In this document: positions 7,017 through 40,324 of the stretch, one piece after another
Numbering within the stretch: the stretch's first letter is position 1
Layout: the number at the start of each line of letters is the position of its first letter
Source: Planctomycetota bacterium
Lineage (GTDB): Bacteria; Planctomycetota; UBA1135; GCA-002686595
Assembly: GCA_043754695.1 (NCBI GenBank)
Contig: JAYUUV010000009.1
Location: 670 to 64,669, forward strand
Direction of reading: 5' to 3'
DNA length: 64,000 bases
Program-made: the position numbers and the translations under genes
The notes under the pieces: model-generated
What the model was told of the DNA's origin: nothing
What the model saw: only the letters and a program-made list of their open reading frames with translations
Databases searched by the model: none

Positions 7017-7135
7017 CTCGTTTGCGAGCGCTATGATCCAGAACCTGCGGGGAGTTCTGCCCGCGTGGCATCCGTGCGCAGGGGCATAGCGCCGGAGTGT
7101 CCACTCCATCATCACCGGCCCCGAAGGACGAAGTC

Positions 7136-7798: not shown

Positions 7799-7872
7799 TC
7801 GCGGCGGCGGCCCAGGCCTGCACGATCAGCGATTCGTCAGCGAATCGTTCAGCGTTCCAGCACGGAGCGTAC

Positions 7873-7937: not shown

Positions 7938-8139
7938 AATCGCGCAGGTCGTCGATCGAGAAGTCGAGGCTGACTTCATGGTCGATGTTGATCAGACGGC
8001 CGGTGCCCTTGAACTGGTTGAAGATCAGAGCCCCGTTCATGACACGGCCGTCCTTGAAGTAGAGCGTGACCTTGTCGGCCGTGCGCGCTCCAAGGAGCTG
8101 GTCGTACATGCGTTGGGAATCGGTGATTCGGCTTTTCAT
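7927..8139 (-). CDS. Small (70 aa) Sm/Hfq-like protein
   Basis: The ATG at 8137-8139 lies inside the listed ORF 7927..8259, whose upstream part is Arg/Ser-rich junk. The product is MKSRITDSQRMYDQLLGARTADKVTLYFKDGRVMNGALIFNQFKGTGRLINIDHEVSLDFSIDDLRDLKF. The segment VTLYFKDGRVMNGALIFNQF lines up by eye with the Hfq Sm1 segment [21 protein letters not shown]. Confidence 0.55.
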   Translation of the reverse strand: MKSRITDSQRMYDQLLGARTADKVTLYFKDGRVMNGALIFNQFKGTGRLINIDHEVSLDFSIDDLRDLKF

Positions 8140-8165
8140 GGAATTCGTACTTGCGGGTCGTGCGC

Positions 8166-9133: not shown

Positions 9134-9501
<368 letters not shown>

Positions 9502-17100: not shown

Positions 17101-17885
17101 GAGAGCTCTGCACGCGCGTCGATCGACAGCGTTCCGCTCGGATCCAGTTCGCGCAGGCCCTCGACATCGGTACCGGGCGGCAGCGCGGCCGTCGAAAGCG
17201 GAAAACCCGCCGTCGAAAGGTGCACGGACAGGATTCCCGCTCGCTCCACACGCCCCTGCATGTAGATCGCGGCTTCGCGATTGGCGGAGTCCGCAAGGCT
17301 TGGCGCGAGCACACCGCGCAGTTCCGCTCGGCCATCGGAGTCGTGGATGAACACCGCATCGACGGAACCGAGCGGGACGTCCCCCATGCGCGGATGCGTG
17401 ACGTCGAACTGTACGCCGTAGATTTCGATCGGCGGAAACGCCGCGACGTCGGCGAGGACTTGCGGCGGCGCCGCCCGCGGGCCGGAGTCCGCGCCGGCGC
17501 CCAGCGCGGCGAGCGCGTCGAACAATTCCGTCGAGAGCCGCACACGTCCACCGTCGATACGCACGTGCTTCACGCGCCGCGGCGGCGGCGCGAAGGGCGA
17601 GAGAATCAGGGTCGCGCGGTTGATGCGCGCCAGCCGGCCGTCGACCCCCAGCGTCAGTCCATGCAGCGTCAGCGCCGGAGTGAACCAGTCGAGCTCGATG
17701 TCCTCGACGTCGAAGTCCGTTCCGCTTTGCCCCAGCTCGCCGCGCACCCTGCCGCGCAGCATGTCCGCGAGCCAGCCGCTCTTTTCGAGCGTGTAGAGCA
17801 CGACGCCGCAGAACGCCAGCGTGCAGGCCAGCGCGAAACACGTGAACAGCAGCACGCGCCCGAAGATCTCAATCAGCCGCTTCAT
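14106..17885 (-). CDS. AsmA/TamB-family large envelope protein
   Basis: 1259 aa with a single N-terminal TM anchor (VLLFTCFALACTLAFCGVVLYTL), followed by a long beta-rich, Gly/Asp/Arg-rich body. The C-terminal segment …SVSVRGDMSRPQIVLKGAL resembles AsmA-like/TamB C-termini. This call is based on architecture. Confidence 0.6.
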   Translation of the reverse strand: MKRLIEIFGRVLLFTCFALACTLAFCGVVLYTLEKSGWLADMLRGRVRGELGQSGTDFDVEDIELDWFTPALTLHGLTLGVDGRLARINRATLILSPFAPPPRRVKHVRIDGGRVRLSTELFDALAALGAGADSGPRAAPPQVLADVAAFPPIEIYGVQFDVTHPRMGDVPLGSVDAVFIHDSDGRAELRGVLAPSLADSANREAAIYMQGRVERAGILSVHLSTAGFPLSTAALPPGTDVEGLRELDPSGTLSIDARAELSLDPKTPSSLALRARLVAGSLTRAASRLALRDLNIDLEANCKVEADRGWFDPRSWSARAAGRGRWRDSELDAFARFGQAAGPQRSLSAELSIKSCEISPDSLAELGLWTLASESFHALAPQGKADLAIAAALDREQRWSGAVDVRLNGDFRATYVGFEPHPGGMRQGFPVPVQNLRGRVAAAFDASQARAFQVGLLELVGNPVDDGNGKALSQVDGLIAAALKTANTPGMPEVVLDFRGQGLNVGTPMRKGVEGLKGTAWIWPAFRPAAGTADCIGRLISDAASGGTAGHFEVYPKDLQLTWEGLPIALDHGQGRIDLEIDPRALFGISFDVAGTTPTAESVHVLGRVQEDPTIVLALHDAEHPIVPKIDEHDLLMDFDVAVRGMALRGSDREVIAATWPGVGKALDMFQPSGKADVNLRAARGRPGDSIAFRVEIEPRQVQLTPTSFSTPTRNVQGRVVVRGSEGGRAGVSSFTTRIAPLIGEWPQDARVACVATFGDSGTDRIEVAGAGIDLTNRGLVGAFREAFAGGSGGRGFDLQALSIDGRIDFNADVSISTPAVGPLRNDGVYRVFLRDNSFRTETSGGFGLSGLWGELVQREGVLTGEHILARLGSTAVTLNDARFVEENGAVHFTTGVQARGVPLDREHLSLFLDPDTVSAAIDRLHLSGWIDFENAKLDFFGKSERGNPKLVLSGDVRPRDAYVDLGLPLSIHRAQVELSELVLEAGHVRAWARVDGLDGSIANRKLQSARMLVTYIQPRLSILDLSGELEGGRIGDLAAVNGPDERARTSASGPAFTMDLLDPYRFELGLALRDVLLEGLLRGMFQSEFADTGYLDAEIRLEGSLEKLTGIVGDGWVHMRDTRLWSIPVMRDLLSQLGLDSSAVFERMKSRFSLGGGVIRMDAIHLESPLVQLVGSGTLDLDGRLNHDLFVRYSLVDRLGPLTRLVYWIQNNLLSVSVRGDMSRPQIVLKGALSFFQSTEHGKRELPLPGLSPLPTRF

Positions 17886-19202: not shown

Positions 19203-19862
19203 TCAGTTCGGTGCTGAACCGAAAGCGCGCAGGTACAGGGGTTCGAGTTGTGTTGGCGAGTGCGAACCCTCGCGCGCATGCCGCAGCACTCCGAGTTCCA
19301 ATAGCGCTGCGGCCGAGGGAACGCTGCCCTGGATCAGGCGCGAGCGAACGTCGGGGCCAAGCGTCGTCGCGAGATCGAGCGTCGAGTCGGCAAAGATCCG
19401 CAGCTCGTCGCCGACAAGCGCGGCAAGTTCCGTGGGTCGGATCAGGCAGGGCGCCTTCAGGACTTCGATGCCCGACTCGAGCCGGCGGTAGCGGGCGAAG
19501 TAGTACGCGGATTGGCGCGCGTCTTGCACCAGCGCAGCCTCCTCGCCGACGGCGAGCGCGCGCCAGCATTGGGCCTCGCCCGACGGAATGCCGAACAGCG
19601 CGGCCTTGCACCCGCGTGCGATGCCCAGCGCAGTGGCCGTGGCGACGCGCAGGCCGGTAAAGCTGCCCGGGCCGGTTCCGACGACCAGCAATTCCAGGTC
19701 AGCGACCCGCAGCCCGGCCTTCGACAGCAGGCGCTCGAGGGCCGGCAGCAGGTCACTGGCGTGGGGCCGGGCACCGGAGAGCCGCTCCTCGAGGGTGACG
19801 TCGCCCGATTGCAGGGCCACCGACGGGGAGCGCGTCGAGGTTTCGAAAGCAGCCGTCGCCAT
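19203..19862 (-). CDS. tsaB: tRNA t6A37 threonylcarbamoyl-transfer protein TsaB (YeaZ)
   Basis: AFETSTRSPSVAL…LELLVVGTGPGSFTGLRVATATALG is the YeaZ/TsaB signature. Confidence 0.85.
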   Translation of the reverse strand: MATAAFETSTRSPSVALQSGDVTLEERLSGARPHASDLLPALERLLSKAGLRVADLELLVVGTGPGSFTGLRVATATALGIARGCKAALFGIPSGEAQCWRALAVGEEAALVQDARQSAYYFARYRRLESGIEVLKAPCLIRPTELAALVGDELRIFADSTLDLATTLGPDVRSRLIQGSVPSAAALLELGVLRHAREGSHSPTQLEPLYLRAFGSAPN

Positions 19863-19881
19863 GGGGGAGGCCGAGGGCGGG

Positions 19882-21237
19882 TCAGCCCGAAAGTTCGTGC
19901 GCGAGCAGGTCTGCCAGCTGCTTGGCCCTGCGCAGGATCCAATCGTGGTCGGGTCCCTCGACCATGACCCGAACCAGGGGTTCCGTGCCCGAGTAGCGCA
20001 GGAGTACCCGGCCGTCTTCGCCCAGCTCCGCTTCCACGGCCTGCACGGCTTCGTTGACGCTTTGGAGACTGCTCAAAGCGGGTTTCCTGGCGACCGAAAC
20101 GTTGATCAGCACTTGCGGGAACGCGTGGAAGTGGCCGGCCAGCGCCGAAAGTGGCTCGCCACTCTCTTTCATGACCCGCAGCACGCGCAGCGCCGTGTAG
20201 ATCCCGTCGCCGATGAAAAAATTCTCGGGTCCAAACACGATGTGACCCGATTGTTCACCGCCCAGGCGCAGCTCCTCGCGGCGCAGGACTTCGACGACAT
20301 TGCGATCGCCGACATCGGTCGTGATCACGCCGACACCGATGTCGCGCATGGTCTTGGTCAGCCCCTTGTTCGACATCACGGTCGTGACCAGGCGCGGGTC
20401 CTTCCATTCGCCGCGGGCCATGGCGTGGCGAGCGAGCAGCATCAAGATCGCGTCGCCCCCGACCAGCTGGCCCTTCTCGTCGACGAGCAGGCAGCGGTCA
20501 CCGTCGCCGTCGAGCGCGATACCGAGTTCGGCTCCAACGCGCCGAACAGAGTTCGCCAGCGCCTCAGGATGCGTCGATCCACAATCCCGATTGATGTTGT
20601 CGCCATCGGGTTCGGCGGCGATCGAGGTGATCTGGGCGCCCAGCCTGCCGAAGACGCGCGGTCCGACCCGGCTGCCACCGCCGTTGGCGCAGTCCAGCGC
20701 CAGGATCATGCCATCGAGCTTCAGACCAGCGCCGACTTTCTCGACCAGGCGCGTCAGATAGAGAACTTCGAGGCTCTCGTCGTACTCAGGTGGCGCGCCG
20801 TCCGGAGCCGGACTCGGATCGGCGATCCAGCGCCGCTCGATCTCGGTCTCGATCTCGTCGGAGAGTTTTAGCCCGTTCCCGGTGAAGAGCTTGATCCCGT
20901 TGTCGTCGGCCGGGTTGTGCGAGGCGGAAACCATGGCACCCAGTTCGAAATCCTGGGTGCGTGCGAGCCAGGCGAGCCCGGGCGTAGTCATCAGCCCGGC
21001 AGAAATGGGGCGCAGGCCGGCTGCGGCGAAGCCGCGCGCGAGCGCCGCGCAAAGCTCGGGTCCCGAGCGGCGGCCATCGTGGCCCAGCACCACACGGCGC
21101 TTCTTCCTCGAGCGCGATTCGCCCGCGAGTACCGCGCCCACGGTCCGCCCGAGCGCCGAGACCGGGCCGGCTGCAAGCCAACCCTCGCCCGCGCGGCCGC
21201 GGACGCCGTCCGTGCCGAAGATGCGAGCCGCGCTCAC
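19882..21237 (-). CDS. glmM: Phosphoglucosamine mutase
   Basis: VSAARIFGTDGVRGRAGE starts at the GTG at 21237. The active-site region is MVSASHNPADDNGIKLF. The product is 451 aa. The upstream 231 codons of the listed 682-aa ORF are Arg/Ala-rich read-through. The ftsH-folP-glmM order matches the conserved order known from E. coli. Confidence 0.9.
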   Translation of the reverse strand: MSAARIFGTDGVRGRAGEGWLAAGPVSALGRTVGAVLAGESRSRKKRRVVLGHDGRRSGPELCAALARGFAAAGLRPISAGLMTTPGLAWLARTQDFELGAMVSASHNPADDNGIKLFTGNGLKLSDEIETEIERRWIADPSPAPDGAPPEYDESLEVLYLTRLVEKVGAGLKLDGMILALDCANGGGSRVGPRVFGRLGAQITSIAAEPDGDNINRDCGSTHPEALANSVRRVGAELGIALDGDGDRCLLVDEKGQLVGGDAILMLLARHAMARGEWKDPRLVTTVMSNKGLTKTMRDIGVGVITTDVGDRNVVEVLRREELRLGGEQSGHIVFGPENFFIGDGIYTALRVLRVMKESGEPLSALAGHFHAFPQVLINVSVARKPALSSLQSVNEAVQAVEAELGEDGRVLLRYSGTEPLVRVMVEGPDHDWILRRAKQLADLLAHELSG

Positions 21238-25641: not shown

Positions 25642-26774
25642 GGCAAAGCTCCGGGCGGTTTCGCGGAATTGGCCGCCGGGGCGGGCAAGGCATTCGGATC
25701 CTCCGCTGCCGCGCCAGGTGCCGGCTGCTGCGGATCAGGTGGCAGTCCTTGGATGGCGCGTTCCGCCTTCGCGATCGTCGGCTCGTCGCCGCTTTGTTCG
25801 GCCAGTACGAGGGCCCGTTCGGCGTGGATTCGAGCACCGTCCCACTTCTCGACCACCCTGTAGAAGTGCGCGACGACCAGGTCGGACTGCGCCAGGCGAG
25901 TCAGGCAATCCTTCTGGTCCGCGCTGGCTCGTGCTTCGAATTCGTTGCCGGCGTGGGCTTCCAACCAGGCGTTGAGTTCGTCGAGGGCGCGCAGCAATTC
26001 GCGCCGGTCGTAGTCCGAACGCAGGATCGAGACGAGCCGCAGGTGGGGGATGCGCCACTCAGCCTCGATGGCGAGCGGACTGTCGAGGTGATAGGTGACC
26101 AAGTCTTGATAGCGTTCGAGTGCGGTCGACCACAGGCGATCGTCTTCGTAGAGCTTCGCCAGGCGACGATAGGCTTGGTCGCAGCGCCGCTCCTTTGGAT
26201 AGTTTTGAACCAGGTACTCGAGGATCGCCTTGGCGTCATCCTGGTCGCTGAACAGACCGAAAATCGAGAAGTGCGACTCCGCGAGTTTCATACCCGCCTC
26301 GAACAGGATATCTCCGGCGAGCACGCGTTCGTGGTGCGTGCCGGCCGGCGGATAGCGCGTGTCGACCTTTTTGATCATCGAGTAGGCATCGACCGGCTCG
26401 CCCTGATCGAGCAGCAATTTCGCCGTGCGTACGCCCGCGGTGATCGCGATCTGGCGCGGCAAGTTGAGCTCGAACAGATCCTCCATCTCGTCGGGGTCGC
26501 TGCCGGCCTTGGAGAGTTCGTCGATGCGTGCTTCCGCGCAGCGTTCGAGCAGCAGATCGATTCGGGTCTTCTGCTCGCTCGACAACGCGTCCGATTCGCG
26601 CACGTCGCGCAGTTCGGAAAGCGCTTGCGCATTCTTGCCCGCCGCGATGTCGGCCTCGGCGCGCGCCACAGTCTTGTCCGCGGCGGCCGCGTCCTCGGCG
26701 GAGCCCGAGCTGCGGAACATCGCACAGCCGGGAGCCACACACAGGACGGTAAGAAGCAGTGCGCGAGCGATCAT
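25638..26774 (-). CDS. TPR-like lipoprotein, BamD(YfiO)-like
   Basis: Signal plus lipobox LLLTVLCVAPGCA with a helical-repeat body. The segment LAQSDLVVAHFYRVVEKWDGA resembles the BamD LAxxELxVAxFYxxRxxYxAA block. The C-terminal tail is Pro/Ala-rich. The ATGA overlaps the recO stop. Confidence 0.5.
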   Translation of the reverse strand: MIARALLLTVLCVAPGCAMFRSSGSAEDAAAADKTVARAEADIAAGKNAQALSELRDVRESDALSSEQKTRIDLLLERCAEARIDELSKAGSDPDEMEDLFELNLPRQIAITAGVRTAKLLLDQGEPVDAYSMIKKVDTRYPPAGTHHERVLAGDILFEAGMKLAESHFSIFGLFSDQDDAKAILEYLVQNYPKERRCDQAYRRLAKLYEDDRLWSTALERYQDLVTYHLDSPLAIEAEWRIPHLRLVSILRSDYDRRELLRALDELNAWLEAHAGNEFEARASADQKDCLTRLAQSDLVVAHFYRVVEKWDGARIHAERALVLAEQSGDEPTIAKAERAIQGLPPDPQQPAPGAAAEDPNALPAPAANSAKPPGALP

Positions 26775-27574
26775 CGTGGGGCGTTGCGTTGTGGGCTGGA
26801 GAGGAACGTACGGTAGCTCTTCGGTCGGCCCTGGAGTTGGTATTCGAGGAAACGCGCGACCGCGTCGCGCAGGTGCAGCAGCGAGTTCGGACTCAGTTCG
26901 AAGGCAGCGGCGGCCGGGCGCGGCGCGCTGGAGCCAGCTGCCAGTCGGGCGGCGTCGAGCAATACGGATTCAGGCAGGGTCCCCACGCGTCGGCCGATCG
27001 CTCTCGCCTCGGCGGCGCAACCGGCGCACAGCCGTCCGCCGCACTGTGCCGAAAACTCCGCCCGACGCGACCCGCTTGCGCCCGTCGCGGGAGCCGGACC
27101 CGCGCAGGATGCGCACTCGAGCAAGGCTGGGGCAAGCCCGAGATTCTGTAGGAATGCCAGTTCGAACTCAACCAGGGCGCGCTGCGGAGGATTCGGCGAC
27201 AGGAGTCGGTCCAGGGCCGTTTCGCCAAGGGCGAAAAGTTCGCTGTTCACCGCTGCTTCCTGGATCCCGCTGTCCATAAGTTCGAGAACGGTAAGCGCCG
27301 CTCGGTAGCGCTCGAGATCCTGGGCGATTTTGTGCCTGCGGGTGGTGATCGTGGCGCCGTGCAAGGTCGAGAGCTCGCGGCCTGGGGTTTCCTGCCAGTC
27401 CAGAGCGAGGGTGTCGAACAGGTCGAGCGCGGCGTAGTAACGCGCGGTCGGGCGATAGGCGCCCTTCGCGAGCAGATGGACGCGGCCGCAATTGCGCGTG
27501 GCGACATGAATGACGAGCGACGATTCGCCAAAGCGAAAGCGTCGCAGAATCAGGGCGTGGTCGATGCGGCGCAT
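26771..27574 (-). CDS. recO: DNA repair protein RecO
   Basis: MRRIDHALILRRFRFGESSLVIHVATRNCGRVHLLAKGA is the OB-fold N-terminus, and the Cys cluster CASCAGP…CGGRLCAGC is in the C-terminal half. The ATG at 27574 is preferred over the GTG at 27586, which lies inside the repeat arm. Confidence 0.85.
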   Translation of the reverse strand: MRRIDHALILRRFRFGESSLVIHVATRNCGRVHLLAKGAYRPTARYYAALDLFDTLALDWQETPGRELSTLHGATITTRRHKIAQDLERYRAALTVLELMDSGIQEAAVNSELFALGETALDRLLSPNPPQRALVEFELAFLQNLGLAPALLECASCAGPAPATGASGSRRAEFSAQCGGRLCAGCAAEARAIGRRVGTLPESVLLDAARLAAGSSAPRPAAAAFELSPNSLLHLRDAVARFLEYQLQGRPKSYRTFLSSPQRNAPR

Positions 27575-27704
27575 GGTGCCAGGCACATCTCCAACCTTTT
27601 GCCGCCGTGTGTTTCACAGCGCCTTTGCCGGTTCAGCTCGACGTGGCCGTTGCTCTCACAGCGCCGTTGGTTGCGCGCAAAAGGGTGGAGATGTGCCTGG
27701 CACC
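27575..27704. repeat. Palindromic repeat unit 1 (130 bp, 28-nt terminal inverted arms)
   Basis: GGTGCCAGGCACATCTCCAACCTTTTGC … GCAAAAGGGTGGAGATGTGCCTGGCACC. The arms are reverse complements with one mismatch. The core holds two direct TCACAGCGCC(T/G)TTG copies around GGTTCAGCTCGACGTGGCC. Confidence 0.9.
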
Positions 27705-27780
27705 GTACTGGCGCGGTCGGTGGTTCACAACGGGGAGATTGTCTCGCGCGGCGCGGATCGAATGATCCCTCCAGTACGGA

Positions 27781-27904
27781 GCCAGGCACATCTCCACCCT
27801 TTTGCGTCCAAGCAACGGCGCTGTGGAAGCAACGGCCACGTCGAGCTGAACCGGCAACGGCGCTGTGAACTAGCAGGCGGCAAAAGTTTGGAGATGTGCC
27901 AGGC
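27781..27904. repeat. Palindromic repeat unit 2 (reverse-complement copy of unit 1, diverged)
   Basis: GCCAGGCACATCTCCACCCTTTTGC … GGCCACGTCGAGCTGAACC … GCAAAAGTTTGGAGATGTGCCAGGC. It aligns to the reverse complement of unit 1 along its whole length, with scattered substitutions. Confidence 0.9.
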
Positions 27905-27938
27905 TCCCGCGGCGCGGCGAACGCCGTTGGGCAACCGT

Positions 27939-29261
27939 TCAGGAAGGAGCCAGGCTCCTGACCCTGACTCTCAGCACACGCCTGTCCGTAACCTCCGACA
28001 CCTGAAACTCACTCCCGCCACGTACGAAGGATTCTCCGCGCAGCGGAAATCGCCCAAACTCGGCCAGCACGAAACCACCCAGAGTCTCGTAATCAGCGGT
28101 CTCCGGGAGGTCGAGGTCGATCAACTCGTTGACTTCGCTGACGTGCAATGCGGCATCGATCTCGACCACGCCGCCGGGCAGCTGCTTCAGCGGGCTCGGC
28201 GCCTCTTCGTCCGATTCGTCGTGCAGTTCGCCGACGATTTCGCCGAGCACGTCACCCAGCGTGACCAGCCCTGCCGTGCCGCCGTACTCATCCAGCACGA
28301 TCGCGAGCTTGATCTTTTCGCGGCGGAATTCCTTGAGCAGCTCCGACACGAGCTTGGTCTCCGGCACGAAGTACGCGGGCCGCAGGAGCGAGCGCAACGA
28401 TCGCTCCGTGGCGTTGGTGTCGACCAGCGCCGTCATCAAGTCGCGCGCCGAAATCGTGCCGATCACGGCGTCGAGCTTGCCTTCGAAGACCGGCAGGCGG
28501 GTGTAGCCGGATTCGGAAGCGATGCGGGCGGACTCGGCCAAGGGCGTGTCGACATCGATCGCCTGGACCGAAGTCCTGGGTGTCATGACCGCGGCGACGT
28601 CGACCTCGCGCACATCCATGATGTTGCCGATCAGTTCGCGCTCGGTGGCATCCAGCGGCCCCGAAGCTTCCGTGTCGGCCACGACCTCGCGCAGGCCCGC
28701 GACAGTCTCCCGCGCGTCCTCTGGATCTGCGCCCTGCCCGAAGAGCCGAATCATGCCTCTGCGCACCGCGTCGAGCCCGAGCGCCAATGCCGCGATCGGC
28801 CACTGCAACCAGTGAAATACAGGCAGGCAGCGGCGGACGATGCCCTCGCCCCAGCTGGATGCCAATGCCTGGGCCAGTGCCTGGGTCGAGATCCACAGGC
28901 AGGGCACCGTGATCGCGAGCGATGCGAGCGTCACACCCCAGGTCACCTGGCGGCTCTCCGAGAACCAGCGCACGATCAGGGTCGCGAAGAGCGCCGCGCT
29001 GGCGGTCTCGAACATGCTGGCCGATGTGGTCAGCTGGCGAGATCGTTCCAGGCGCTCACGCAACTTGGCGCGCCGCGCTGGATCCCGCTCGGACTCGAGC
29101 ACCCGGCCGGCGGGCGTCTGCCCCAGCGAACGTCTCAGCGCAGCGAAGGCGGCAGAGAAGATCAGCGCAACCAGTGCCCCGGCCAGGGCATGGAATTCAA
29201 GCTGAGTCAGATCGACGTCGGAGGTTCCGACGACGGACAGGAACGACAGGGCAGGATTCAA
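27939..29261 (-). CDS. CNNM/CorC-HlyC family transporter-associated protein (DUF21 + CBS pair + CorC_HlyC)
   Basis: The N-terminal TM region is followed by …ELIGNIMDVREVDVAAVMTPRTSV… (CBS pair), then …IVLDEYGGTAGLVTLGDVLGEIVGE… and the C-terminal …ETLGGFVLAEFGRFPLRGESF… The ORF-track start is a TTG, so the start is uncertain. Confidence 0.85.
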   Translation of the reverse strand: MNPALSFLSVVGTSDVDLTQLEFHALAGALVALIFSAAFAALRRSLGQTPAGRVLESERDPARRAKLRERLERSRQLTTSASMFETASAALFATLIVRWFSESRQVTWGVTLASLAITVPCLWISTQALAQALASSWGEGIVRRCLPVFHWLQWPIAALALGLDAVRRGMIRLFGQGADPEDARETVAGLREVVADTEASGPLDATERELIGNIMDVREVDVAAVMTPRTSVQAIDVDTPLAESARIASESGYTRLPVFEGKLDAVIGTISARDLMTALVDTNATERSLRSLLRPAYFVPETKLVSELLKEFRREKIKLAIVLDEYGGTAGLVTLGDVLGEIVGELHDESDEEAPSPLKQLPGGVVEIDAALHVSEVNELIDLDLPETADYETLGGFVLAEFGRFPLRGESFVRGGSEFQVSEVTDRRVLRVRVRSLAPS

Positions 29262-32613: not shown

Positions 32614-33819
32614 ATGTCGCTTTGCCGCACGTCTCGCGGGGTCCGGCGCGCAGTCGTCGGCTGCGCCCTGATGTTCTTCGCGCTGCTTTGGCCAACGGCC
32701 GGCGCCAGCGCGTACATCGCGCCGCAGACGCCACCACCCGCGAAAGCGCCGCCGACAGTGGACTGCAAGGTCTGCAAAGCCACGGGCATCGTCCCCTGCG
32801 GCGAACATCCCAAGGAAGAATGCGCCTGGGAGAAGAGCGCGCTGTTCTGCAGTTACATCGCCGATTGCCCGGTCTGCAAGGGCACGGGTTTCATCGACTG
32901 CAAGGACTGCGACAATCCCGAGTCCGGCAAGCTGCTCGCGGCCAAGATCGCGGCGCTGCCCAGCCTGCGCGCCGAAGTCGAGAAGTACGACGCGCAGATG
33001 GGACGCAAGCTGCGCAAAGCAGTCTCGACGCATTTCACATTGGTGTGGGAGATCGACAGCCTGAAGGTCGAGAAACGCATCGTCGGCGCGCACGAACTGA
33101 CGCACATTTACCTCGACCGGCTCGAGCAGTTGTTCGCGCTCTATATCGATCTGACCAAGGCGCGGCCGGGCGAAATCGTCAAGCGCCAGAAGGTTTTCGT
33201 CTGGTGGCTGGTCAATGATCAGCAGGAGGCCACGCTGCGTTTTTGTCAGCAGGGTTCGGCCAATGGCGTGAAGCTGATGGGTTCGGAGTCGGCCTACTCG
33301 ATCTGCGGCAACCGCCAGTTCTTCACGACCGACGAGCGCCTGCACCGCAACATCGTGCACAGCGTGACGCACCTCTTGTTCGCGCACGAACAGCCGAGCA
33401 TGTGGATCGGCAACCTCAAGGCCGGCTGGGTCGAAGAGGGCCTGGCCCACGTCATGGAGGACCGCATCTTCGGTATCTGCGACAACTACTGCTACGAGGA
33501 GCAGAACACGAACAACGATTTCCACAGCGGCAAGTACAAGGTCGCCATGCGCAAGATGATCGTCGATGGCAAGTCACCGCCCGTCTCGGACGTGATCGGG
33601 CGCAATACCGATCAGTTGAAGTTGCCCGAGCACGCTGTGGCCATGAGCCTGGTCGACTACCTGCTGCAACGCGAGCCGGGCAAGTTCGATCTGTTCGGGA
33701 AGCGCCTGCGCTCCAAGGTCGCGGTGCGCGATGCACTCCGGGCTGCGTTCGGGATTTCGCCGCTGGAACTGGAGACGGCCTGGAAGGCCTGGGTGCTCGA
33801 GACCTATCCCAAGCAATGA
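32614..33819 (+). CDS. Secreted protein: DnaJ-type CxxCxGxG zinc-finger repeats + DUF1570/peptidase-MA-like domain
   Basis: The ATG at 32614 is 2 nt after the previous stop. It is in frame with the artefactual 695-aa ORF 31732..33819, whose 5' part is out-of-frame read-through of the previous gene. The signal peptide is AVVGCALMFFALLWPTAGASA. The Cys motifs are CKVCKATGIVPC and CPVCKGTGFIDCKDC (nt 32764-32913). Later comes IVHSVTHLLF…WVEEGLAHVMED, which resembles the HExxH…EGLAEY core of DUF1570. Confidence 0.65.
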   Translation: MSLCRTSRGVRRAVVGCALMFFALLWPTAGASAYIAPQTPPPAKAPPTVDCKVCKATGIVPCGEHPKEECAWEKSALFCSYIADCPVCKGTGFIDCKDCDNPESGKLLAAKIAALPSLRAEVEKYDAQMGRKLRKAVSTHFTLVWEIDSLKVEKRIVGAHELTHIYLDRLEQLFALYIDLTKARPGEIVKRQKVFVWWLVNDQQEATLRFCQQGSANGVKLMGSESAYSICGNRQFFTTDERLHRNIVHSVTHLLFAHEQPSMWIGNLKAGWVEEGLAHVMEDRIFGICDNYCYEEQNTNNDFHSGKYKVAMRKMIVDGKSPPVSDVIGRNTDQLKLPEHAVAMSLVDYLLQREPGKFDLFGKRLRSKVAVRDALRAAFGISPLELETAWKAWVLETYPKQ

Positions 33820-35243
33820 TGCTCGCGCTGCTCTTCGCGCTGTGCACGCAGTCGCCGTCCGCGGCGAGCGAGACGCAAAGTGTGCTGGAGCTTGCGATGG
33901 ACGCGCATTTTCGCGTGGCGCGCAGCGAACGCGAACTCGCCTTCTTCGAGCGCTATGCCCGCGCTTCGGATGAAGCCAAGGCGCGCGCGCGCGGCGTGCT
34001 GGAGAGATTGCGCGCGCCCGGAACCGCCAGCGCTGCGCCGAGTTCGTCCCCGGCCGTGGCCAAGGCGCTGCGCGCGCTCGAGACACCTGTGGCAACTCCG
34101 AATGCGGATGCGGCGCGCAGGCGCGAACGCCTCGAGGAACTCGTCGACTCGCTCGACCTTCAGGCGACTCCCGGAATATTCGCGGCAGCGAGTTCGCTCG
34201 AGGGCAAACTCGTGCACATCGCCATCTCGCCGCTCTATCCGCTCAAGGAACGCCCGCAAGTCAGCCTCTCGCTGGTCTGGATCCTGCCCGATGGCTCGGA
34301 ACGACTGGCCTATCGCGGGCTGGTCAAGCCCGCGCTCTTCGGCGGGGCCGGTTTCGGCGTCCAACTCGGTTTCCCAGGCCACGAGCCCGGCACGCGGCGG
34401 CTCGCGATCGAAGTCGAGTGCGACGGCATCAACGTACGCGGAGAGCCCTTCGAACTGCAGTGCGTCGCCGCGCTCGACGAGCGCGCGAAGCAGGTCTTCG
34501 CCGGCCTTGTCGAGCTCGCCGATCCGCGCATGCCGCTCGCGAATTGGATGGCGCTCGACGCGCAGCGCGGACTGCGCACGCTGGCGCGAGTCGATGCCGA
34601 GCAACAACTGTCGCGGCTGGAGAGCAAGGCGAACGCCGCACATGCTTACCCGTGGTTGCTCGCGTTCGCCGCGTCCGAGGGCGATGCGCAGTGGATCTGG
34701 CGTTTGGATCCGCCGGGTGCGCCGCAGGCCACGTTGCTCTTGTTGTGCCCGTCGACGGAACCTGCCGAAGCCAGCCTGTCGCGAGCCGAATGGGCCGGCC
34801 TGGCAGGTTGGCGTGTGCTCTCGATGCACCTGCCGCGCGGCGGCGCGGGCGAAGGCACGACGCAAGAATTGTTCGCGCGTCTCAGTTCCAGGTTGGACGA
34901 AAGCGGCGAAAAGCTGCCGCTGGTCTGCGTCGCGCGCGGCGATACCATCGGCAAGTTCGCCATGGATTTTTACGGCGCGAAATCGCGGCCGTATGACGCG
35001 GAGGTGCTGCTGATGTCGGCAGCGCCCGCGAGCCCGGAGAGCCTTGCGGGCAGCGTGCCGCGCCTGGTGCTCGCTCCGGGCGGCCGGGCAACGCCGGAGG
35101 GCTGCGCGATCGGCCCGCAGACTTGGTGGCTCGACAGTTCCACGCTTGCACTGATCGCCGACTTCGAATTGCCGACGCGTTTGAAGTCGACGCTGCCGCT
35201 GCTGCTTGGAGCGCTGCGCGAGTCATCGAAGGAAGCGAAGTGA
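33816..35243 (+). CDS. Hypothetical secreted protein
   Basis: ATGATG at 33816 overlaps the previous stop (ATGA). The signal-like N-terminus is MMLALLFALCTQSPSAAS. 475 aa, no motif recognised. Confidence 0.55.
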   Translation: MMLALLFALCTQSPSAASETQSVLELAMDAHFRVARSERELAFFERYARASDEAKARARGVLERLRAPGTASAAPSSSPAVAKALRALETPVATPNADAARRRERLEELVDSLDLQATPGIFAAASSLEGKLVHIAISPLYPLKERPQVSLSLVWILPDGSERLAYRGLVKPALFGGAGFGVQLGFPGHEPGTRRLAIEVECDGINVRGEPFELQCVAALDERAKQVFAGLVELADPRMPLANWMALDAQRGLRTLARVDAEQQLSRLESKANAAHAYPWLLAFAASEGDAQWIWRLDPPGAPQATLLLLCPSTEPAEASLSRAEWAGLAGWRVLSMHLPRGGAGEGTTQELFARLSSRLDESGEKLPLVCVARGDTIGKFAMDFYGAKSRPYDAEVLLMSAAPASPESLAGSVPRLVLAPGGRATPEGCAIGPQTWWLDSSTLALIADFELPTRLKSTLPLLLGALRESSKEAK

Positions 35244-36907
35244 GAGGACTTTTCGCCGTACTGATCGCTTTTGCGCTCTGGTTCGTTCCACCGCCGACTC
35301 GCTTCGAGGGCGCGCAAAGTTTGCGGAGCGCTGAAAGTTGCTATCGCATGCGCATGTGCGAGTTGGCGTTGTTCACCGGCGAGAGTCCGCTGCAAGATCG
35401 CCTGCTGGAATGGCGCGCGGGCGAGTACGTTCCCTACGGCGCCCTGGCGCCCGCGGCGAGCGCGTTCCTGCTCGGACGGCTCGTGCCACGTGTGGCGCAG
35501 GCGGTGGAGCAGGGCGATCTCGACGAAGATGCGCTTGCCGACGGAGCGCGGCGCCTGATGCTCGTGCTGGCCTGGATCGCGGCGCTTTCGATCATGTTCG
35601 CAGCCTCCAAGCTCAGGTTGCCTGGGGACCCGACGGCGCAGGCCGGCCCCTGGGTGTTCGCCTGCTCGCTTGGCATCGCGCTCGTCTGGACCGCGCTCGT
35701 GCTTGCGCCCTCCGTCGATGGTGGATCGGTGCGGCCGGCTGTCTGGTCGCTGCTTTTGTGTTCCGCCGTGCTGGGCGGAGCTCTCTTGCTCGCGCGTCCC
35801 CACGAACTCGGAGACCTGATCGGTTTGGCGATCGGTGTCGGCGTGCTTGCCGGCCTCGCGCTTGCGAACGATCCCTTCGCCTGGAACACGGTGCTCGCAC
35901 CGCTGTGCGCGCTGGGCCTGGCCGCGCGCGAACGGCCCAAGAATTTGCGTCGCGACAGCCTGCGCGCGGCGATCTTCTTCAGCGCCACGACGCTGATCGT
36001 GTCGCTGGTGCGAACTCCCTGGCCGGCGGGTACGTCGCCGTGGCCGAGATTCGAGCTCGCTTGGGCAGCGCCATCGCTTTCGTCAGCCGAACTCGCAATC
36101 GACGCGCTGTGCCTTGCGGCAATCGCCTGGCTGTTGCTGCGGGCACGGGACTGCACGCAGCGGCGCACGTTGAGCGTGGTGCTCGTGCTCGGTTTCGTGC
36201 TGCGCATGATCGACGCGCGTTTCGCCGCGGCCCCGCTGGCCGCCGCCGGTTGCGCGCTGGTGTGTTGGACGCAAGCGCTGGCGAGCGACGGCGAGCGCAG
36301 TCCTGTGCGGCGCGCGCTGCCGATCGCCGCCGCCGCCGCAATGCTCGTGGCGATCGCCTGGAACGACAACGCGCCCTACACGACGGCTTCGATCCGTGCG
36401 CTGCGCGAGCTGCGCCAGACCACGCCGTCCGGTGGCGCGTGGAATCATCCGTTGGCCAGGCAGGAGTATGGGATCCTGGCCAATCCCGAATTTGGAGGAA
36501 TGATCGCCTTCCACGCTCGCCGGGCGTCGTGTGGCGCACTGCTTCCCGGCGCCACGGCGAGTGAGGCCGCGCGCAGCACGGCCGGTGCGCTGCTCTGCAA
36601 GTCGATCGAAGAGCTGGCCGCGCGCGCGCGCGAACTCGGCGCGGCCTATGTGATCGTGACGCGCCGCGATCTGGAGCGCCCCGCAGCCTGGCTTGCGCTT
36701 GCGGGGCAGGAAGCCGCGACCTCTGACGGCGTCGTCGCCGGGACGGGAGTGCTGCCCGAATTGCTCGCTCGAACAGAGCTTGCTGGTTTCGAATTGCTGC
36801 GTCGCGTGGCCGCGCCTGGCGACCCAGAGGGTCCGGCTGAGCTGGCGGTTTGGCGGCTCGTCAGGCCCGCGTTCCTGCACGAACCGGCAGCGCTGCGAGC
36901 GCGATAG
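35240..36907 (+). CDS. Polytopic membrane protein, STT3/AglB-like (GT-C fold) with degenerate WWDYG position
   Basis: The GTG at 35240 overlaps the previous stop (GTGA). There are multiple hydrophobic segments over residues ~1-375, then a soluble C-terminal domain. By eye, SAESCYRMRMCELALFTGESPLQDRLLEWRAGEYVPYG resembles the STT3/AglB first-loop block (DxYYhxR…G…D…YPxG). IRALRELRQTTPSGG…QEYGILANPEFGGMIAFH resembles the (L)xxLxxNTP…YGVxSWWDYGHWI block, and …LGAAYVIVT resembles …gvrYVIV. Confidence 0.55.
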   Translation: MRGLFAVLIAFALWFVPPPTRFEGAQSLRSAESCYRMRMCELALFTGESPLQDRLLEWRAGEYVPYGALAPAASAFLLGRLVPRVAQAVEQGDLDEDALADGARRLMLVLAWIAALSIMFAASKLRLPGDPTAQAGPWVFACSLGIALVWTALVLAPSVDGGSVRPAVWSLLLCSAVLGGALLLARPHELGDLIGLAIGVGVLAGLALANDPFAWNTVLAPLCALGLAARERPKNLRRDSLRAAIFFSATTLIVSLVRTPWPAGTSPWPRFELAWAAPSLSSAELAIDALCLAAIAWLLLRARDCTQRRTLSVVLVLGFVLRMIDARFAAAPLAAAGCALVCWTQALASDGERSPVRRALPIAAAAAMLVAIAWNDNAPYTTASIRALRELRQTTPSGGAWNHPLARQEYGILANPEFGGMIAFHARRASCGALLPGATASEAARSTAGALLCKSIEELAARARELGAAYVIVTRRDLERPAAWLALAGQEAATSDGVVAGTGVLPELLARTELAGFELLRRVAAPGDPEGPAELAVWRLVRPAFLHEPAALRAR

Positions 36908-36954: not shown

Positions 36955-39363
36955 ATGGGGAAAGCGCTTCGCGTGGTCCTGGGTGTCCACGCACACTGGA
37001 CCGGTTCGCAGTGGGCCGCCATCGACAACGTCCTGGAGCAGGCGCTCGAGACCGCCCTGTCCGCAGCAAAGCGCCATGGGGCCGCCTGTGCCGTCGATTT
37101 CGACGCGCGCGGGCTCGAGGAATTGGCCGCGCGCTCGCCTGTGGTTCTCGAGCGTCTGCGCGCAGCGCTCTTGGAGCAGCGTGTCGAACTGACCGGTGCC
37201 TGTTACGCGCAACCCTGCGCCGGGTTGAACGGCGGCGAATCCAACATACGCCAACGTGTGCTCGGCGCGCGTGTCGTCCAGCGCTTGCTCGGCCGGCGCG
37301 TGCGCGCGATCTGGGAGGGCGCCCCCTCGATCCACCCGCAACTGCCGCAGATCCACTCAGGCCTGGGCATCCAGGCCGTCGGTCTGGTCCCCGCGATCGA
37401 GGAGTGCAGCAGCGACGTTCCGCTGGATCTGCACGAGTGCTTCGTATGGCAGGGCCCGGATGGAACGCAGCTGCGCGCGCTTGGCGCAAGTTCGCTGTCG
37501 ATGGCCTTCGCGCGCGGTGATTTCGACGCGCAGGTCGACGGGCTGCCCGCCGGCGAGGCTGCCTCCGTACTCATGGCCTGGGTGCCGCAGGATGAGCAGC
37601 GCGCGGCCGAATTCTGGGGCCGCATCGACGCGTTGCGCGCCGATCCGCGGCTTGCCTTCCAGGCAACTGCGTTCAGCGCACTCGTTCGCGATCTGGCGCC
37701 CAGGGCGCAGGGCGAACCGATTCGCATCGGCAACGATGAAGTGTTCCACGGCTACGCGCCCGCCAAGAACGGCGATCTGCTCGGGCGCGGCGTCGCCTGG
37801 TGCGAAGAGCAACTGCTCGCGGCCGAAGCGCTCGCCGCGTTGCTGGGAAGATTGCGCGACGTCGATCGCGAAATGGCGACCTGGCCCGCGTGGGAGCTCG
37901 ACGAATCCTGGCGCGAGTTGTGCATCGCGCAGCACCACTCGATCCCGGCTCGCGAGGGCCGGCTGGCCGCGGTGGCCGAATGTTCGATCGAGCGCTCGCT
38001 CGCGCTGGCGCAGGAGGTCCACGAACGCACGCTGTTTCAACTCGGCCAGAGTGTGCAGGGGCTCGAGGGCGGTCACCTGGTGCTCAATCCGCTGGGCTGG
38101 GCGCGCGATGTGCTGCACGACAGCGGCGTGGCCCGCGCCGTGCCGCCCTTTGGTTACAAGGTCGTCGATCCCTATGAGTTGGACAGCACGCCGCTCGGCC
38201 GCGTGCGCGTGCGCGAAAACGACGAACGCATCGCGCTGGTGCGCGGACGCATGCGCGTCGAGATCGACCGCAGCCGCGGCGTGATCGAGCAAATCTCGAC
38301 ACGCGAATTTCCGGAGGGGCTGCTCGATCCCGCGCGGCCGCTGCTCGATTTTTCGCTCGTGCGCGGCGGGCGAGAAGAAAAATTCCCCGAGGCGGAGGTG
38401 GCGAGTTCGTCGACCGAAGAAGAGGAAACGGACGAGCTGACCATTCGCCGCATTGGCCGCGGAGGCGTCAATCTGACGATCCAGGTCGCGATCGAGCCTT
38501 TGTTCGACGCGGTCTGGATTCGAATCCAGTCCGAGGATCTGCCGCGGCCCGATGCCGGCGCCCAAGCCGGGCTGCGCTGCGTGCTGCGGCCGCGCCTCGC
38601 GGGTGAACTCAAGTTGCGCGCCGACTCGCCCTATGGCGTCGGAGAAATCCGCGCAGAGACTTCGCGCGAGCGTCGCGCACCGCGCGGCGCAGGCCGGAGC
38701 GAACTCGTCGATACACTTCTGCGGCCCTTCACCGCGCTGCGTTTCGCAGACCTGTCCGCCGCAGACGGCCGGCGCGGTGTGCTCTACGTGCACGACGGTG
38801 CACCGTCCTTCGCGCGTATCGATGGGGGCTTCGAGCATTTGCTGTCGACGGTCGATCCTCTGGATCCAGGTTCGTTCGAAAGCGCACTGATGGCGGACCT
38901 GTGGATCGTTCCTCACGCCGGCATGGACGACGCAGCGCGCATGCGCCGCGCGATGGAATGCACGCTGGGCAATCCGCGTTTCATGCAGAGCACGGAAATT
39001 CGCGGCGGTGGGGTGCTGCCCGCGGCGATGGGCGCGCTGTCGGTGAGTCCCGAGCACGTGCTCGCCACGGCTTTTTGGCGCGAGCCGGCCAGCGCGCGCG
39101 AACACGTGGAGCACGCGCTAGGCACGGGCATGGACGCCGTGTTTGCGGTGCGGCTTGTCGAATTCTCTGGTCGCGCGGCCAAGGTCAAGTTGCGCGTCGC
39201 CGGCAGCTTGATGCGCGCCGCGCGCACCGATCTGCTGGGCGAAGTCCTCGAATTGCTTCCTGTCGAGCGCTGCGACGCGGCCTTCGGGCCCGGAGAAGGT
39301 CCCTGGAGCGAGATCAGCCTGGAGCTTGGAGCCAATGCGATCGCGACAATTCACTTCGTGTAG
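36955..39363 (+). CDS. Glycoside hydrolase family 38-like (alpha-mannosidase-like) protein
   Basis: The ATG at 36955 starts MGKALRVVLGVHAHW…. The segment LLEQRVELTGACYAQPCAGLNGGESNIRQRVLGARVVQRLLGRRVRAIWEGAPSIHPQLPQIHSGLGI parallels the GH38 N-domain block (GRxExxGGMWVEPDxNLPSGESLxRQxLxGxRFFxxxFG…WxPDxFGxxxQLPQIxxxxGI). No signal peptide is obvious. Confidence 0.5.
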   Translation: MGKALRVVLGVHAHWTGSQWAAIDNVLEQALETALSAAKRHGAACAVDFDARGLEELAARSPVVLERLRAALLEQRVELTGACYAQPCAGLNGGESNIRQRVLGARVVQRLLGRRVRAIWEGAPSIHPQLPQIHSGLGIQAVGLVPAIEECSSDVPLDLHECFVWQGPDGTQLRALGASSLSMAFARGDFDAQVDGLPAGEAASVLMAWVPQDEQRAAEFWGRIDALRADPRLAFQATAFSALVRDLAPRAQGEPIRIGNDEVFHGYAPAKNGDLLGRGVAWCEEQLLAAEALAALLGRLRDVDREMATWPAWELDESWRELCIAQHHSIPAREGRLAAVAECSIERSLALAQEVHERTLFQLGQSVQGLEGGHLVLNPLGWARDVLHDSGVARAVPPFGYKVVDPYELDSTPLGRVRVRENDERIALVRGRMRVEIDRSRGVIEQISTREFPEGLLDPARPLLDFSLVRGGREEKFPEAEVASSSTEEEETDELTIRRIGRGGVNLTIQVAIEPLFDAVWIRIQSEDLPRPDAGAQAGLRCVLRPRLAGELKLRADSPYGVGEIRAETSRERRAPRGAGRSELVDTLLRPFTALRFADLSAADGRRGVLYVHDGAPSFARIDGGFEHLLSTVDPLDPGSFESALMADLWIVPHAGMDDAARMRRAMECTLGNPRFMQSTEIRGGGVLPAAMGALSVSPEHVLATAFWREPASAREHVEHALGTGMDAVFAVRLVEFSGRAAKVKLRVAGSLMRAARTDLLGEVLELLPVERCDAAFGPGEGPWSEISLELGANAIATIHFV

Positions 39364-39445
39364 TGCCGCGCTGATCGGGATTCGCGGGTCACAGACGCCG
39401 CGCTCCTCCGTACGACAGATTTTCACGGCCCCTCGCCTCTCGCCC

Positions 39446-40324
39446 ATGAAGCTAGCTTTCAAATTGGTCGCATTGGTTCTTCTGCTCGTCGCACCGAGTC
39501 TTGCTGCTCAGCAGCACGGAGAGCTGCGCAGTCTCGCGCCCGATGGGCTCGCGCTCGGCGGCTTCGACCCGGTCAGCTACTTCCCCGCGGGCGGGATGGC
39601 CGCCGCGATTGGCAGCGAGAAGTTCGAGTTCAAACTCGGGCCGGCGCGCTATCGATTCGTCAGTGCCGAGCATCTGGCGTGGTTCAAGAGCGAGACCGAA
39701 CGCTACGAACCGGCGTACGGCGGGTTCGATGCAGCATCGATTGCTGGTGGGGGAAGGAAGCCGGCGAGTCCGCAGTCGTTCAAGGTGGTCGGCGCACGGC
39801 TTTTCCTGTTCGCTGAGCCGACGGAAGTGGGCGCCTTCGACGCGAAGCAGGTCTCCAGCGCCGACGAAGCCTGGAAAAAACTGAGCGGCGAATCCGCGCG
39901 CGGGGTTGCCGCCGACGACGCGCGCGTCGGCGTGAAATGGAATCTCGGCAAGGACCAACTCGCCATCGAAGGCTTCGACCCGGTCAGCTATTTCCCCGAG
40001 GGCGGCGGCTCGCCGGTGAAGGGCGATCCGAAGCTCGAAAGCGTCCTGGACGGCGCGCGCTATCGGTTTGCGAGCGCCGCGCACCAGAAATGGTTTTTGG
40101 CCGAGCCTGCGCGCTACCGCCCGAAGTACGGCGGCTGGTGCGCCTATGCCATGGTCGACGGCGACGACGTCGAAGTCGATCCGAAGTCCTTCCTGATCGA
40201 GCACAGCCGGCTCTTGCTTTTCTACAAGGGCTTCTTGGCCGACACGCGCGCGAAGTGGTTGCCCAAGGCGCAGGAATTCGCGCCGAAGGCGGACGCCGCG
40301 TGGGCGAAGCACGCGCTCAAGTGA
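39446..40324 (+). CDS. Secreted tandem YHS-domain-like protein
   Basis: The ATG at 39446 gives the signal peptide MKLAFKLVALVLLLVAPSLAA. There are two repeats of GFDPVSYFP…G…ARYRF(V/A)SA(E/A)H…WF…P.RY.P.YGG. Only the second repeat has the YGGWCAY Cys. Confidence 0.7.
   Translation: MKLAFKLVALVLLLVAPSLAAQQHGELRSLAPDGLALGGFDPVSYFPAGGMAAAIGSEKFEFKLGPARYRFVSAEHLAWFKSETERYEPAYGGFDAASIAGGGRKPASPQSFKVVGARLFLFAEPTEVGAFDAKQVSSADEAWKKLSGESARGVAADDARVGVKWNLGKDQLAIEGFDPVSYFPEGGGSPVKGDPKLESVLDGARYRFASAAHQKWFLAEPARYRPKYGGWCAYAMVDGDDVEVDPKSFLIEHSRLLLFYKGFLADTRAKWLPKAQEFAPKADAAWAKHALK

Follow-up and report, generated by a model that had tools for sequence, protein, structure and literature searches.

Two palindromic units of 130 bp, lying in opposite orientation to each other, occupy the spacer between corC and recO in a 64,000-nucleotide stretch of contig JAYUUV010000009.1 from the Planctomycetota bacterium assembly GCA_043754695.1 (hereafter the window, meaning the whole of this stretch). 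The units and the centre between them are treated here as one element. The favoured reading, which is given about an even chance of being right, is that the element represents a new, low-copy and lineage-restricted palindromic intergenic repeat, similar in kind to MITEs (miniature transposable elements with inverted repeats) and repetitive extragenic palindromic (REP) sequences, which would have descended vertically, been remodelled by slippage and conversion, and have a predicted role on the corC-recO RNA. The copy on the corC side is named unit A and the copy on the recO side unit B; they correspond to units 2 and 1, respectively, of an initial annotation of this DNA that was made from the letters of the sequence.

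Each unit consists of three layers. The outermost is a terminal palindrome, GG(A/T)GCC(A/T)GGC(A/T)CC, flanked by GTAC; the middle layer is a 28-bp stem, the two sides of which change together; and the inner layer is an asymmetric 74-nt core with a 49-nt block in which two direct CACAGCGCCKTTG motifs, 42 nt apart, surround CCGGYTCAGCTCGACSTGGCC. In the core of unit B, the direct TCACAGCGCC(T/G)TTG copies are found at 27614-27627 and 27656-27669, also at a spacing of 42 nt, and the length of about 49 nt for the conserved block is counted with the variable 6-nt spacer excluded. The core motif of unit B, CACAGCGCC, reads on the plus strand, so unit B lies in reverse orientation on the corC-recO mRNA, and the core motif of unit A reads on the minus strand, which is the mRNA strand. 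In the window, units A and B share 90.7% identity, and together they form a large inverted repeat (27575-27718 versus 27764-27907) with 144-nt arms that are 88% complementary and 45 nt apart. The unit B stem reaches position -1 of the recO start codon, where the element adjoins the ATG, and the unit A stem begins 31 nt past the corC stop codon. A third, diverged copy of the arm, at 27930-27958, is the 3' end of corC itself, comprising its last six codons (RSLAPS) and the stop codon. The recO-proximal half of the centre together with the inner arm of unit B (27693-27735) is nearly invariant in the alignment columns of the close lineages; on the minus strand this block is made up of CCCCGTTGTGAAC, a 12-nt partly variable spacer and GCCAGTACGGTGCCAGGCAC. 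On each strand, one stop-free reading frame spans the whole element (window 27540-27990).

Apart from one small correction of coordinates, the geometry in the initial annotation stood when it was measured again: unit 1 at 27575-27704 with 28-nt arms, one mismatch and a core of about 74 nt, the two direct core copies within it, the pair of 9-nt sequences that extends the symmetry inward, the single large inverted repeat, and the position of the element 1 nt upstream of the recO ATG in a 364-bp gap were all recovered. Its unit 2 is indeed the reverse complement of unit 1, but the bounds given for it, 27781-27904, fall 3 nt short on each side (27778-27907). Three features go beyond that annotation, namely the conservation of the motif block in the core, the additional arm copy that lies in corC, and a second locus that shares the terminal palindrome.

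The repeat structure far exceeds what is expected by chance. A 16-mer from the arm occurs four times against an expectation of 0.56 (0 of 100 shuffles), and when the window is compared with itself by BLAST, no other repeat comes near the element in strength. Whichever strand is modelled, the whole region is predicted to form one hairpin, with energies of -297.5 kcal/mol for the minus (mRNA) strand (z = -25) and -310.7 kcal/mol for the plus strand (z = -21). For the separate units, the predicted RNA folds reach -77.5 kcal/mol for unit B on the mRNA strand (z = -7.4) and -67.1 kcal/mol for unit A (z = -5.4), and the centre by itself folds no better than its shuffles (z = -1.3). Since the same units recur in independent assemblies (L004/L005, L014 and L015, described below), the element is not an assembly artefact.

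The RecO homologues that were found all come from uncultured Planctomycetota, and the RecO of the window matches P0123, which is encoded on an NCBI contig, at 100% identity. The relatives share the gene order sigma factor / corC - recO - TPR - lptE - ftsH. In relatives with 66-73% RecO identity, the corC-recO spacer measures only 68 bp (L006-L009), 70 bp (L010-L012) or 37 bp (L013), and in about 100 kb of sequence from these relatives neither a unit in the spacer nor the GGWGCCWGGCWCC terminal palindrome is present. Three further lineages, whose RecO is 89-92% identical to that of the window, carry the element at the same place in differing states. In the window, where the spacer is 364 bp, unit A is full with B-type arms and an extra 51-nt arm copy, the centre is short, and unit B is present. 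In L014 (GCA_031413375.1; spacer 301 bp), unit A has a 42-nt internal deletion, the centre has a 29-nt insertion, and unit B is present and bounded by perfect 11-bp direct repeats, GTGCCAGGCAC. In L015, the contig begins in the centre, so that unit A lies outside it and the centre is partial, and unit B is present. In L004/L005 (GCA_031388685.1; 193 bp in L004), unit A is full, with a left arm that is the coding end of corC including its stop codon, the centre is short, and unit B is absent; a single palindrome, GGTGCCAGGCACC, stands in its place immediately before the recO ATG. The corC stop codon lies within the unit A stem in both L004 and L014, and the A arms of these two are of corC type (TCCTTCC), as against the B-type ACATCTCC of the window. 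An intact unit is kept in either orientation, only A being intact in L004 and only B in L014. The coordinates of the features in the window are collected in Table 1.

Table 1. Features of the corC-recO spacer, its flanking genes and the second locus, in window coordinates
Feature	Position	Strand	Description
recO	26771-27574	minus	Pfam RecO_N + RecO_C; ATG at 27574-27572, directly 3' of unit B on the mRNA strand
Unit B	27575-27704	plus	130-bp hairpin unit; 28-nt arms, 96% complementary (one mismatch), 74-nt core
Unit B, recO-proximal arm	27575-27602		GGTGCCAGGCACATCTCCAACCTTTTGC; outer 12 nt part of the GGTGCCWGGCACC terminal palindrome
Unit B, conserved core motif region	27614-27669	plus	TCACAGCGCCTTTG, CCGGTTCAGCTCGACGTGGCCG, 6-nt variable spacer TTGCTC, TCACAGCGCCGTTG
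Unit B, inner arm	27677-27704		GCAAAAGGGTGGAGATGTGCCTGGCACC
Centre between the units	27705-27777	minus	Bounded by 9-bp inverted repeat CCGTACTGG (27703-27711) / CCAGTACGG (27771-27779)
Unit A	27778-27907	minus	130-bp hairpin unit; arms 27778-27805 and 27880-27907, 28 nt, 89% complementary, 74 nt between
Diverged 51-nt tandem copy	27908-27958	minus	Left arm + linker + start of motif 1; 27879-27907 versus 27930-27958, 72% identity, spacing 51
corC	27939-29261	minus	CNNM/CBS/CorC_HlyC transporter-associated protein (Pfam); stop codon 27939-27941; upstream of recO; syntenic in all relatives
Second locus	7868-7926		Hairpin, 25-bp stem, 4-nt loop: GTAC-GGTGCCAGGCACCTTCAACGATTCG-agta-CGAATCGCCGGAGCTGCCTGGCACC; no 74-nt core

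The order in which these states arose can be approached through recO itself. The four recO genes (window, L015, L014 and L004) share 86-89% nucleotide identity, and their informative sites group the window with L015 and L014 with L004 (14 sites, versus 7 and 2 for the alternatives). Because this tree places L004 beside L014, the absence of unit B in L004 is a loss. As to the form of the loss, one copy of the 11-bp repeat is left where a hairpin formerly lay between two. It has been reported that polymerases slip across a hairpin bounded by direct repeats (PMC4134008), and both the loss in L004 and the 42-nt deletion in L014, which lies exactly between the two direct core motifs of unit A and takes out one of them, have exactly the form of such slipped-strand deletion substrates; the slippage model, however, covers how the element changes, not its identity nor why its core is conserved. 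Units A and B of the window have been homogenised, since the A arms are B-type there and corC-type in L004 and L014. In addition, the CorC C-terminus reads RVRVRSLAPS in the window clade and RVRVRK(L/P)AA or RVRVTKPAA in the unit-free relatives, and because these ends are homologous, the left arm of ancestral unit A is modified native coding sequence and not an import.

According to the favoured reading, unit A would have formed first, at the 3' end of corC, with the last corC codons serving as its left arm, and unit B would then have been placed as an inverted second copy into the GGTGCCAGGCACC palindrome adjoining the start codon of recO; the two events would belong to the common ancestor of a narrow group of uncultured Planctomycetota. 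The element would thereafter have been inherited vertically and remodelled through its own repeats by slippage and conversion. One lineage would have lost B precisely between the 11-bp direct repeats, another would have undergone the 42-nt deletion between the two core motifs, and the window genome would have acquired the 51-nt tandem duplication, the new copy freeing the stem from the corC reading frame, together with the homogenisation of its A arms to the B type.

It is quite improbable, by comparison, that the units are an active MITE mobilised in trans by a transposase of the insertion sequence or RAYT type encoded elsewhere, with GGWGCCWGGCWCC as the target, an 11-bp target duplication, and A and B as independent insertions. 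The size of the units and their 28-bp terminal inverted repeats are those of a MITE, but the core is more conserved than the arms, which is the opposite of what a transposase recognising the ends would leave. The perfect 11-bp direct repeats around B in L014 and the single copy at the empty site of L004 favour an insertion, yet the recO tree makes that empty site a loss, and the supposed duplication is itself palindromic and could equally be an extension of the arm. Both units stand at copies of one palindrome, which also occurs at the second locus, and REPs within short palindromes are on record (PMC3733652); for unit A, however, an insertion with a 13-bp duplication would imply, from the L004 sequence, a corC that had no stop codon before the insertion. 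Contigs that end at the repeats (L029, L030, L005 and L015), as repeats cause in assembly, may speak faintly for mobility. No other copy was found in about 90 kb of sequence from the window clade, only two matches appeared among 1.84 billion proteins, and the 38 open reading frames (ORFs) scanned in the window include no transposase.

The pattern of conservation differs between the layers of the units. As a neutral proxy, the four-fold degenerate sites of recO and corC were used, which show 70-77% identity among the close lineages, and region-wise conservation was taken as the mean pairwise identity among the five full units. By this measure, the linkers between stem and motifs drift at 45%, 58% and 65%, the arms reach 80-88%, motif 1 and motif 2 reach 91% each, and the central block reaches 95.5%. 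In the 28-bp stem, changes on both sides are seen in 8 of the 28 pairs and 91.9% of the cells are paired, a level that none of 500 shuffles equalled and that compares with 35-53% in slid controls. Within the core, no covariation was detected; its predicted pairs are either invariant or rest on self-complementary GCGC. On our reading, the stem appears to be kept as a stem, through selection or through DNA-level correction between the arms. The core appears to be kept as sequence, which suggests a sequence-specific partner that is independent of one transcribed strand; because the block is conserved in either orientation, this partner would most simply be a putative DNA-binding protein. Selfish repeats do not usually conserve their core more strongly than their stems, and this is the one feature that merits follow-up. 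The strand bias of G.U pairs, which was tried as a signature at the RNA level, proved uninformative: the counts in the large repeat are 1 versus 4, and consistent G.U pairs occur solely opposite the stop codon of corC, in L004 and L014.

It is unlikely, though conceivable, that the 49-nt block (CACAGCGCCKTTG twice around CCGGYTCAGCTCGACSTGGCC) is an undescribed functional nucleic-acid module recruited for the control of corC and recO, either as a platform for a protein or as a structured RNA or DNA; if so, the palindromic stems would present the module, for example in a cruciform or a hairpin, and would not be transposon ends. It is very improbable that the units are one or two genes for a structured non-coding RNA, with transcription of their own and a function unrelated to corC and recO, in which the long closing stem would present the conserved core. 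The covarying stem, the conserved core with variable linkers and the very stable predicted folds would all agree with such an RNA, but covariation is missing inside the core, no promoter or terminator pattern and no G.U bias is seen, and the search of Rfam 15 gave no family at gathering score over the element, where only mir-550 (38.8 bits, its gathering score being 81) and MIR160 appeared, both of them generic matches to long hairpins. Moreover, no single strand is preserved, because the two copies are oppositely oriented and the lineages keep either one intact.

Several other candidates were considered for the core and rejected. Comparison with the patterns of parS, the LexA box, IHF sites, attC and CRISPR repeats gave at most half-site matches or matches with incompatible spacing. 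A tRNA-derived origin, suggested by the T-arm-like GGTTCAGCTC, received no support from ARAGORN, which found neither tRNA nor tmRNA. A small ORF is also not tenable: by eye, the variable columns of the alignment lack 3-nt periodicity, a start codon is absent, and linker indels disrupt the frame.

A second place in the window carries part of the same architecture. It lies between a peroxiredoxin gene (7097-7798, plus strand) and a small convergent ORF (7927-8259, minus strand), shares with the recO locus the 16-mer GTACGGTGCCAGGCAC and the arm start CCTTC, and has predicted folds of -38 and -43 kcal/mol (z about -8). The hairpin is kept in place in L028 and L031. The peroxiredoxin-side spacer measures 113-128 bp in the three genomes that have it (window 7799-7926, L028 6677-6789, L031 1046-1164) and 7 bp in the sister lineage L032 (4529-4535); in view of the latter, at least two compact spacers of the clade have gained a hairpin that bears this terminal palindrome. 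The GTAC(GG) flank is present at both window loci and at the recO locus of L004, L005, L014 and L015, and is not kept at the second locus in L028 and L031. The peroxiredoxin-side spacer also holds two copies of a small CGATTCG-N4-CGAATCG hairpin. Two independent Logan contigs, L029 (end at 2389) and L030 (end at 1052), stop at the same base inside the second-locus hairpin, and at the recO locus the first base of L005 falls within unit A and that of L015 within the centre; these breaks hint at repeats or population variants in the metagenomes concerned.

For further copies, 342 kb were compared, consisting of the window and the loci of its relatives, of which about 90 kb (64 kb plus about 28 kb) come from the window clade; larger public collections were scanned as well. 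A translated search of the element against 5.8 billion proteins by a word-indexed method gave no match. An exhaustive HMMER search of the translated element against 1.84 billion representative proteins returned two nameless ORFs, P0244 (199 aa) and P0245 (190 aa), each of which spans a unit (QRRCE...VE(L/V).RQRRCE) with corC-type arms and a VR(C/S)QAP flank. Their identity to each other, 67%, is confined to the 46 residues of the unit, the flanks being unrelated. Both are spurious ORFs read through copies of the unit. P0245 looks like the same arrangement of A, centre, B and recO, and P0244 may be another locus, because its flanks match neither corC nor recO in any frame of any of the loci compared.

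A number of results weigh against the favoured reading and are gathered here. No core-bearing unit was found outside corC-recO in the 342 kb, either by nhmmer with a unit profile or by blastn at word size 9. The arm pattern GGCACATCTCCANNCTTTTGC gave three matches in the GTDB representative genomes, a collection that does not contain the source genome, and all were judged to be chance; L002, on inspection, is coding with no hairpin, and L001 and L003 belong to unrelated phyla and match just the 21-22-nt pattern. In JGI metagenomes the core pattern CCGGYTCAGCTCGACSTGGCC had 12 matches, none with a flanking CACAGCGCC; IMG/VR gave no match to the core and seven to the flank 16-mer, which were taken as chance from the expected number alone; and the whole element had no blastn match in plasmids. 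With only two ORF matches among 1.84 billion proteins, the element is of low copy number and not a high-copy family. No family match to a transposase, RAYT or reverse transcriptase was obtained in the 38 window ORFs scanned, a few smaller candidate ORFs being left out, in agreement with the initial annotation, which had seen none of these in the window. Stem mismatches are mostly of transversion type, without a G.U bias to either strand; the complementarity of the arms can arise by DNA-level correction without selection; the scan of the spacer found no sigma-70 promoter pattern; and local birth appears to fit unit A better than a foreign insertion, given that its left arm is native corC and that RSLAPS is homologous to RK(L/P)AA.

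A further explanation, which is a real possibility although somewhat doubtful, is that the element was born in place and belongs to no repeat family, native palindromes at the corC stop and the recO start having seeded duplications by template switching and slippage. Such an element would be kept as a predicted regulator platform, with two direct 13-nt sites four helical turns apart in each unit, or as hairpins that tune expression. In its favour, all four lineages have the unit at this one locus and the 342 kb compared hold it at no other, the ancestral left arm of unit A consists of corC codons whose product is homologous to the C-terminus of the unit-free relatives, the missing B of L004 is a loss, and the scans of GTDB representatives, JGI metagenomes, IMG/VR, plasmids and word-indexed proteins were negative. 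The core block conserved above the neutral level between drifting linkers would suit a regulator site, and an intact unit kept in either orientation (A in L004, B in L014) is more in keeping with a site on double-stranded DNA than with an RNA specific to one strand. However, the 16-17-nt GTACGGTGCCAGGCAC(C) recurs at the unrelated, clade-specific locus 7868-7926, a recurrence not easily accounted for unless both had a common source, the flanks of P0244 match nothing at corC or recO, and no regulator, operator-like palindrome or promoter pattern was identified. The suggestion in the initial annotation of a mobile or REP-like element is partly supported: the architecture fits a MITE or REPIN, and B is present or absent among close relatives. 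Mobility is weakened, however, on the terms of that annotation itself, which would give it up for a unit that occurs only at one locus and is conserved in place in related genomes, because the unit was seen at one locus in four lineages.

The favoured reading of a palindromic intergenic repeat was also compared with the known kinds of small repeats. Correia elements (CREE/NEMIS) of Neisseria are MITEs with inverted ends and a conserved core, which are reported to carry IHF sites and promoters and to undergo RNase III cleavage (PMC2649163, PMC10969869). Their size of about 100-155 bp, their conserved core enclosed by inverted ends of about 26 bp, their intergenic position near gene starts or ends, their long hairpins when transcribed and their differing presence between related genomes all resemble the present element (PMC2649163, PMC10969869). 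Unlike it, Correia elements are dispersed over each genome in more than 100 copies, duplicate a TA target, have promoters and an IHF site that has been mapped, and are cleaved by RNase III; here, the full unit is found at one locus, a palindrome of 11-13 bp forms the flanking repeat, the sequence shows no similarity to theirs, and the element is known from sequence alone.

REPs are imperfect palindromes of 20-40 bp whose stems measure 5-13 bp and whose loops measure 2-20 nt (PMC3733652, Table 1); most are found downstream of coding regions, they occur as inverted dimers, and certain genomes have them within short palindromes (PMC3733652). Like REPINs and BIMEs, the element has two inverted palindromic units that form one long hairpin (here with 144-nt arms, 88% complementary), and it is similarly extragenic, directly after a stop codon, variable among close relatives and subject to excision of a unit (PMC3337134, PMC3116915, PMC3733652). 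In contrast, a REPIN is about 90 bp overall, and REPs have an unpaired GTAG or CGTC tag, tens to thousands of copies per genome and a neighbouring RAYT gene, whereas here the units are 130 bp with 28-bp stems (25 bp at the second locus), 74-nt conserved cores, a GTAC flank and a very low copy number. No GTAG adjoins the stems, and CGTC occurs inside the core (GGCCACGTCGAGC) but not beside an 8-9-bp stem.

ERIC/IRU sequences of enterobacteria are likewise imperfect palindromes of about 127 bp, intergenic and present in few copies in certain genomes (about 30 in E. coli), and ERIC is transcribed with its neighbours and affects mRNA stability according to its position (PMC10969869). Unlike the present element, ERIC has a conserved central inverted repeat and is spread over many genera; the present core is asymmetric and contains direct repeats, and its occurrence is limited to one narrow clade and essentially one locus. 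As for MITEs in general, the unit has the structural features of the class (a size of about 50-500 bp, terminal inverted repeats, non-coding), and with regard to target and empty sites, the 11-bp repeat flanking B is a palindrome, L004 has a single copy, and the tree indicates loss. Overall, the element most resembles a MITE of the Correia or ERIC type, or a REPIN doublet of unusually large size. It was placed in the broad kind of small palindromic intergenic repeats and in no named family, because it has the structural features of MITEs and departs from REPs in size, stem and tag. Almost nothing was found in the literature on small non-autonomous repeats in Planctomycetes, a survey of GTAG/CGTC REPs mentioning the phylum briefly (PMC3733652), and no description of this palindromic repeat family could be found.

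The element probably acts as an RNA structure between corC and recO. The two genes are probably co-transcribed, because the spacers of the relatives are only 37-70 bp. On a corC-recO transcript, the units would fold as two very stable hairpins or as one duplex of about 150 bp, and by analogy with REP, ERIC and Correia sequences, this structure would protect or define the 3' end of corC and offer a target for a double-strand RNase (PMC3733652, PMC10969869, PMC2649163). The same structure would limit access to the recO start by burying the first nucleotides upstream of the ATG, and no Shine-Dalgarno sequence is evident at recO. REP hairpins within about 15 nt of a stop codon have been reported to lower protein output through ribosome stalling, an effect that would apply to unit A of the L004 type, the stem of which includes the corC stop codon. 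The RNA-level role proposed in the initial annotation has some support in the covariation of the stem, but it receives no help from Rfam or from a G.U strand bias. No terminator-like site was found on either strand of 27575-27958, and no T-run follows any arm. More speculatively, the nearly invariant block of the centre (CCCCGTTGTGAAC, the 12-nt spacer and GCCAGTACGGTGCCAGGCAC) may hold the promoter or the 5' end of recO, in which case unit B would be a 5' leader hairpin. A sigma-70 candidate in this block, TTGTGA-N17-TACGGT, matches at just 7 of 12 positions, fails the scan and was rejected.

Some observations on the relatives and on the rest of the window may be added. In the unit-free relatives (L006 9933-10000; L010 2596-2665; L013 949-985), the spacer is otherwise unconserved and shows no Shine-Dalgarno sequence, and TGTCGTAAT is kept 8-12 nt upstream of the recO GTG start; the latter could be a candidate -10 box, which would point to a leaderless or short-leader recO mRNA. 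Elsewhere in the window, long ORFs without a Pfam match, which are typical of Planctomycetota, are found at 14106-17885 (1259 aa), 1716-3116, 19588-20871, 33243-35243 and 35123-36907, the last two sharing an overlap of about 120 nt. A direct repeat of about 176 nt with 69% identity (39548-39723 versus 39959-40134, plus strand) lies within the Pfam-less ORF 39326-40324 and is probably an internal protein repeat. The sole match in the window at the Rfam gathering level is a full-length bacterial class A RNase P RNA at 9135-9499 (minus strand, 306 bits).

The four structural states at one orthologous site form a natural series in which long palindromes would be born from native sequence, duplicated, homogenised and deleted. 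Since hairpins stand at the corC stop codon in the relatives and at position -1 of recO, these natural variants bear on termination, mRNA processing and translation initiation. The finding also calls for caution in annotation, because neither strand of the element has a stop codon in one of its frames, and spurious proteins, P0244 and P0245, have already been produced from it by gene callers.

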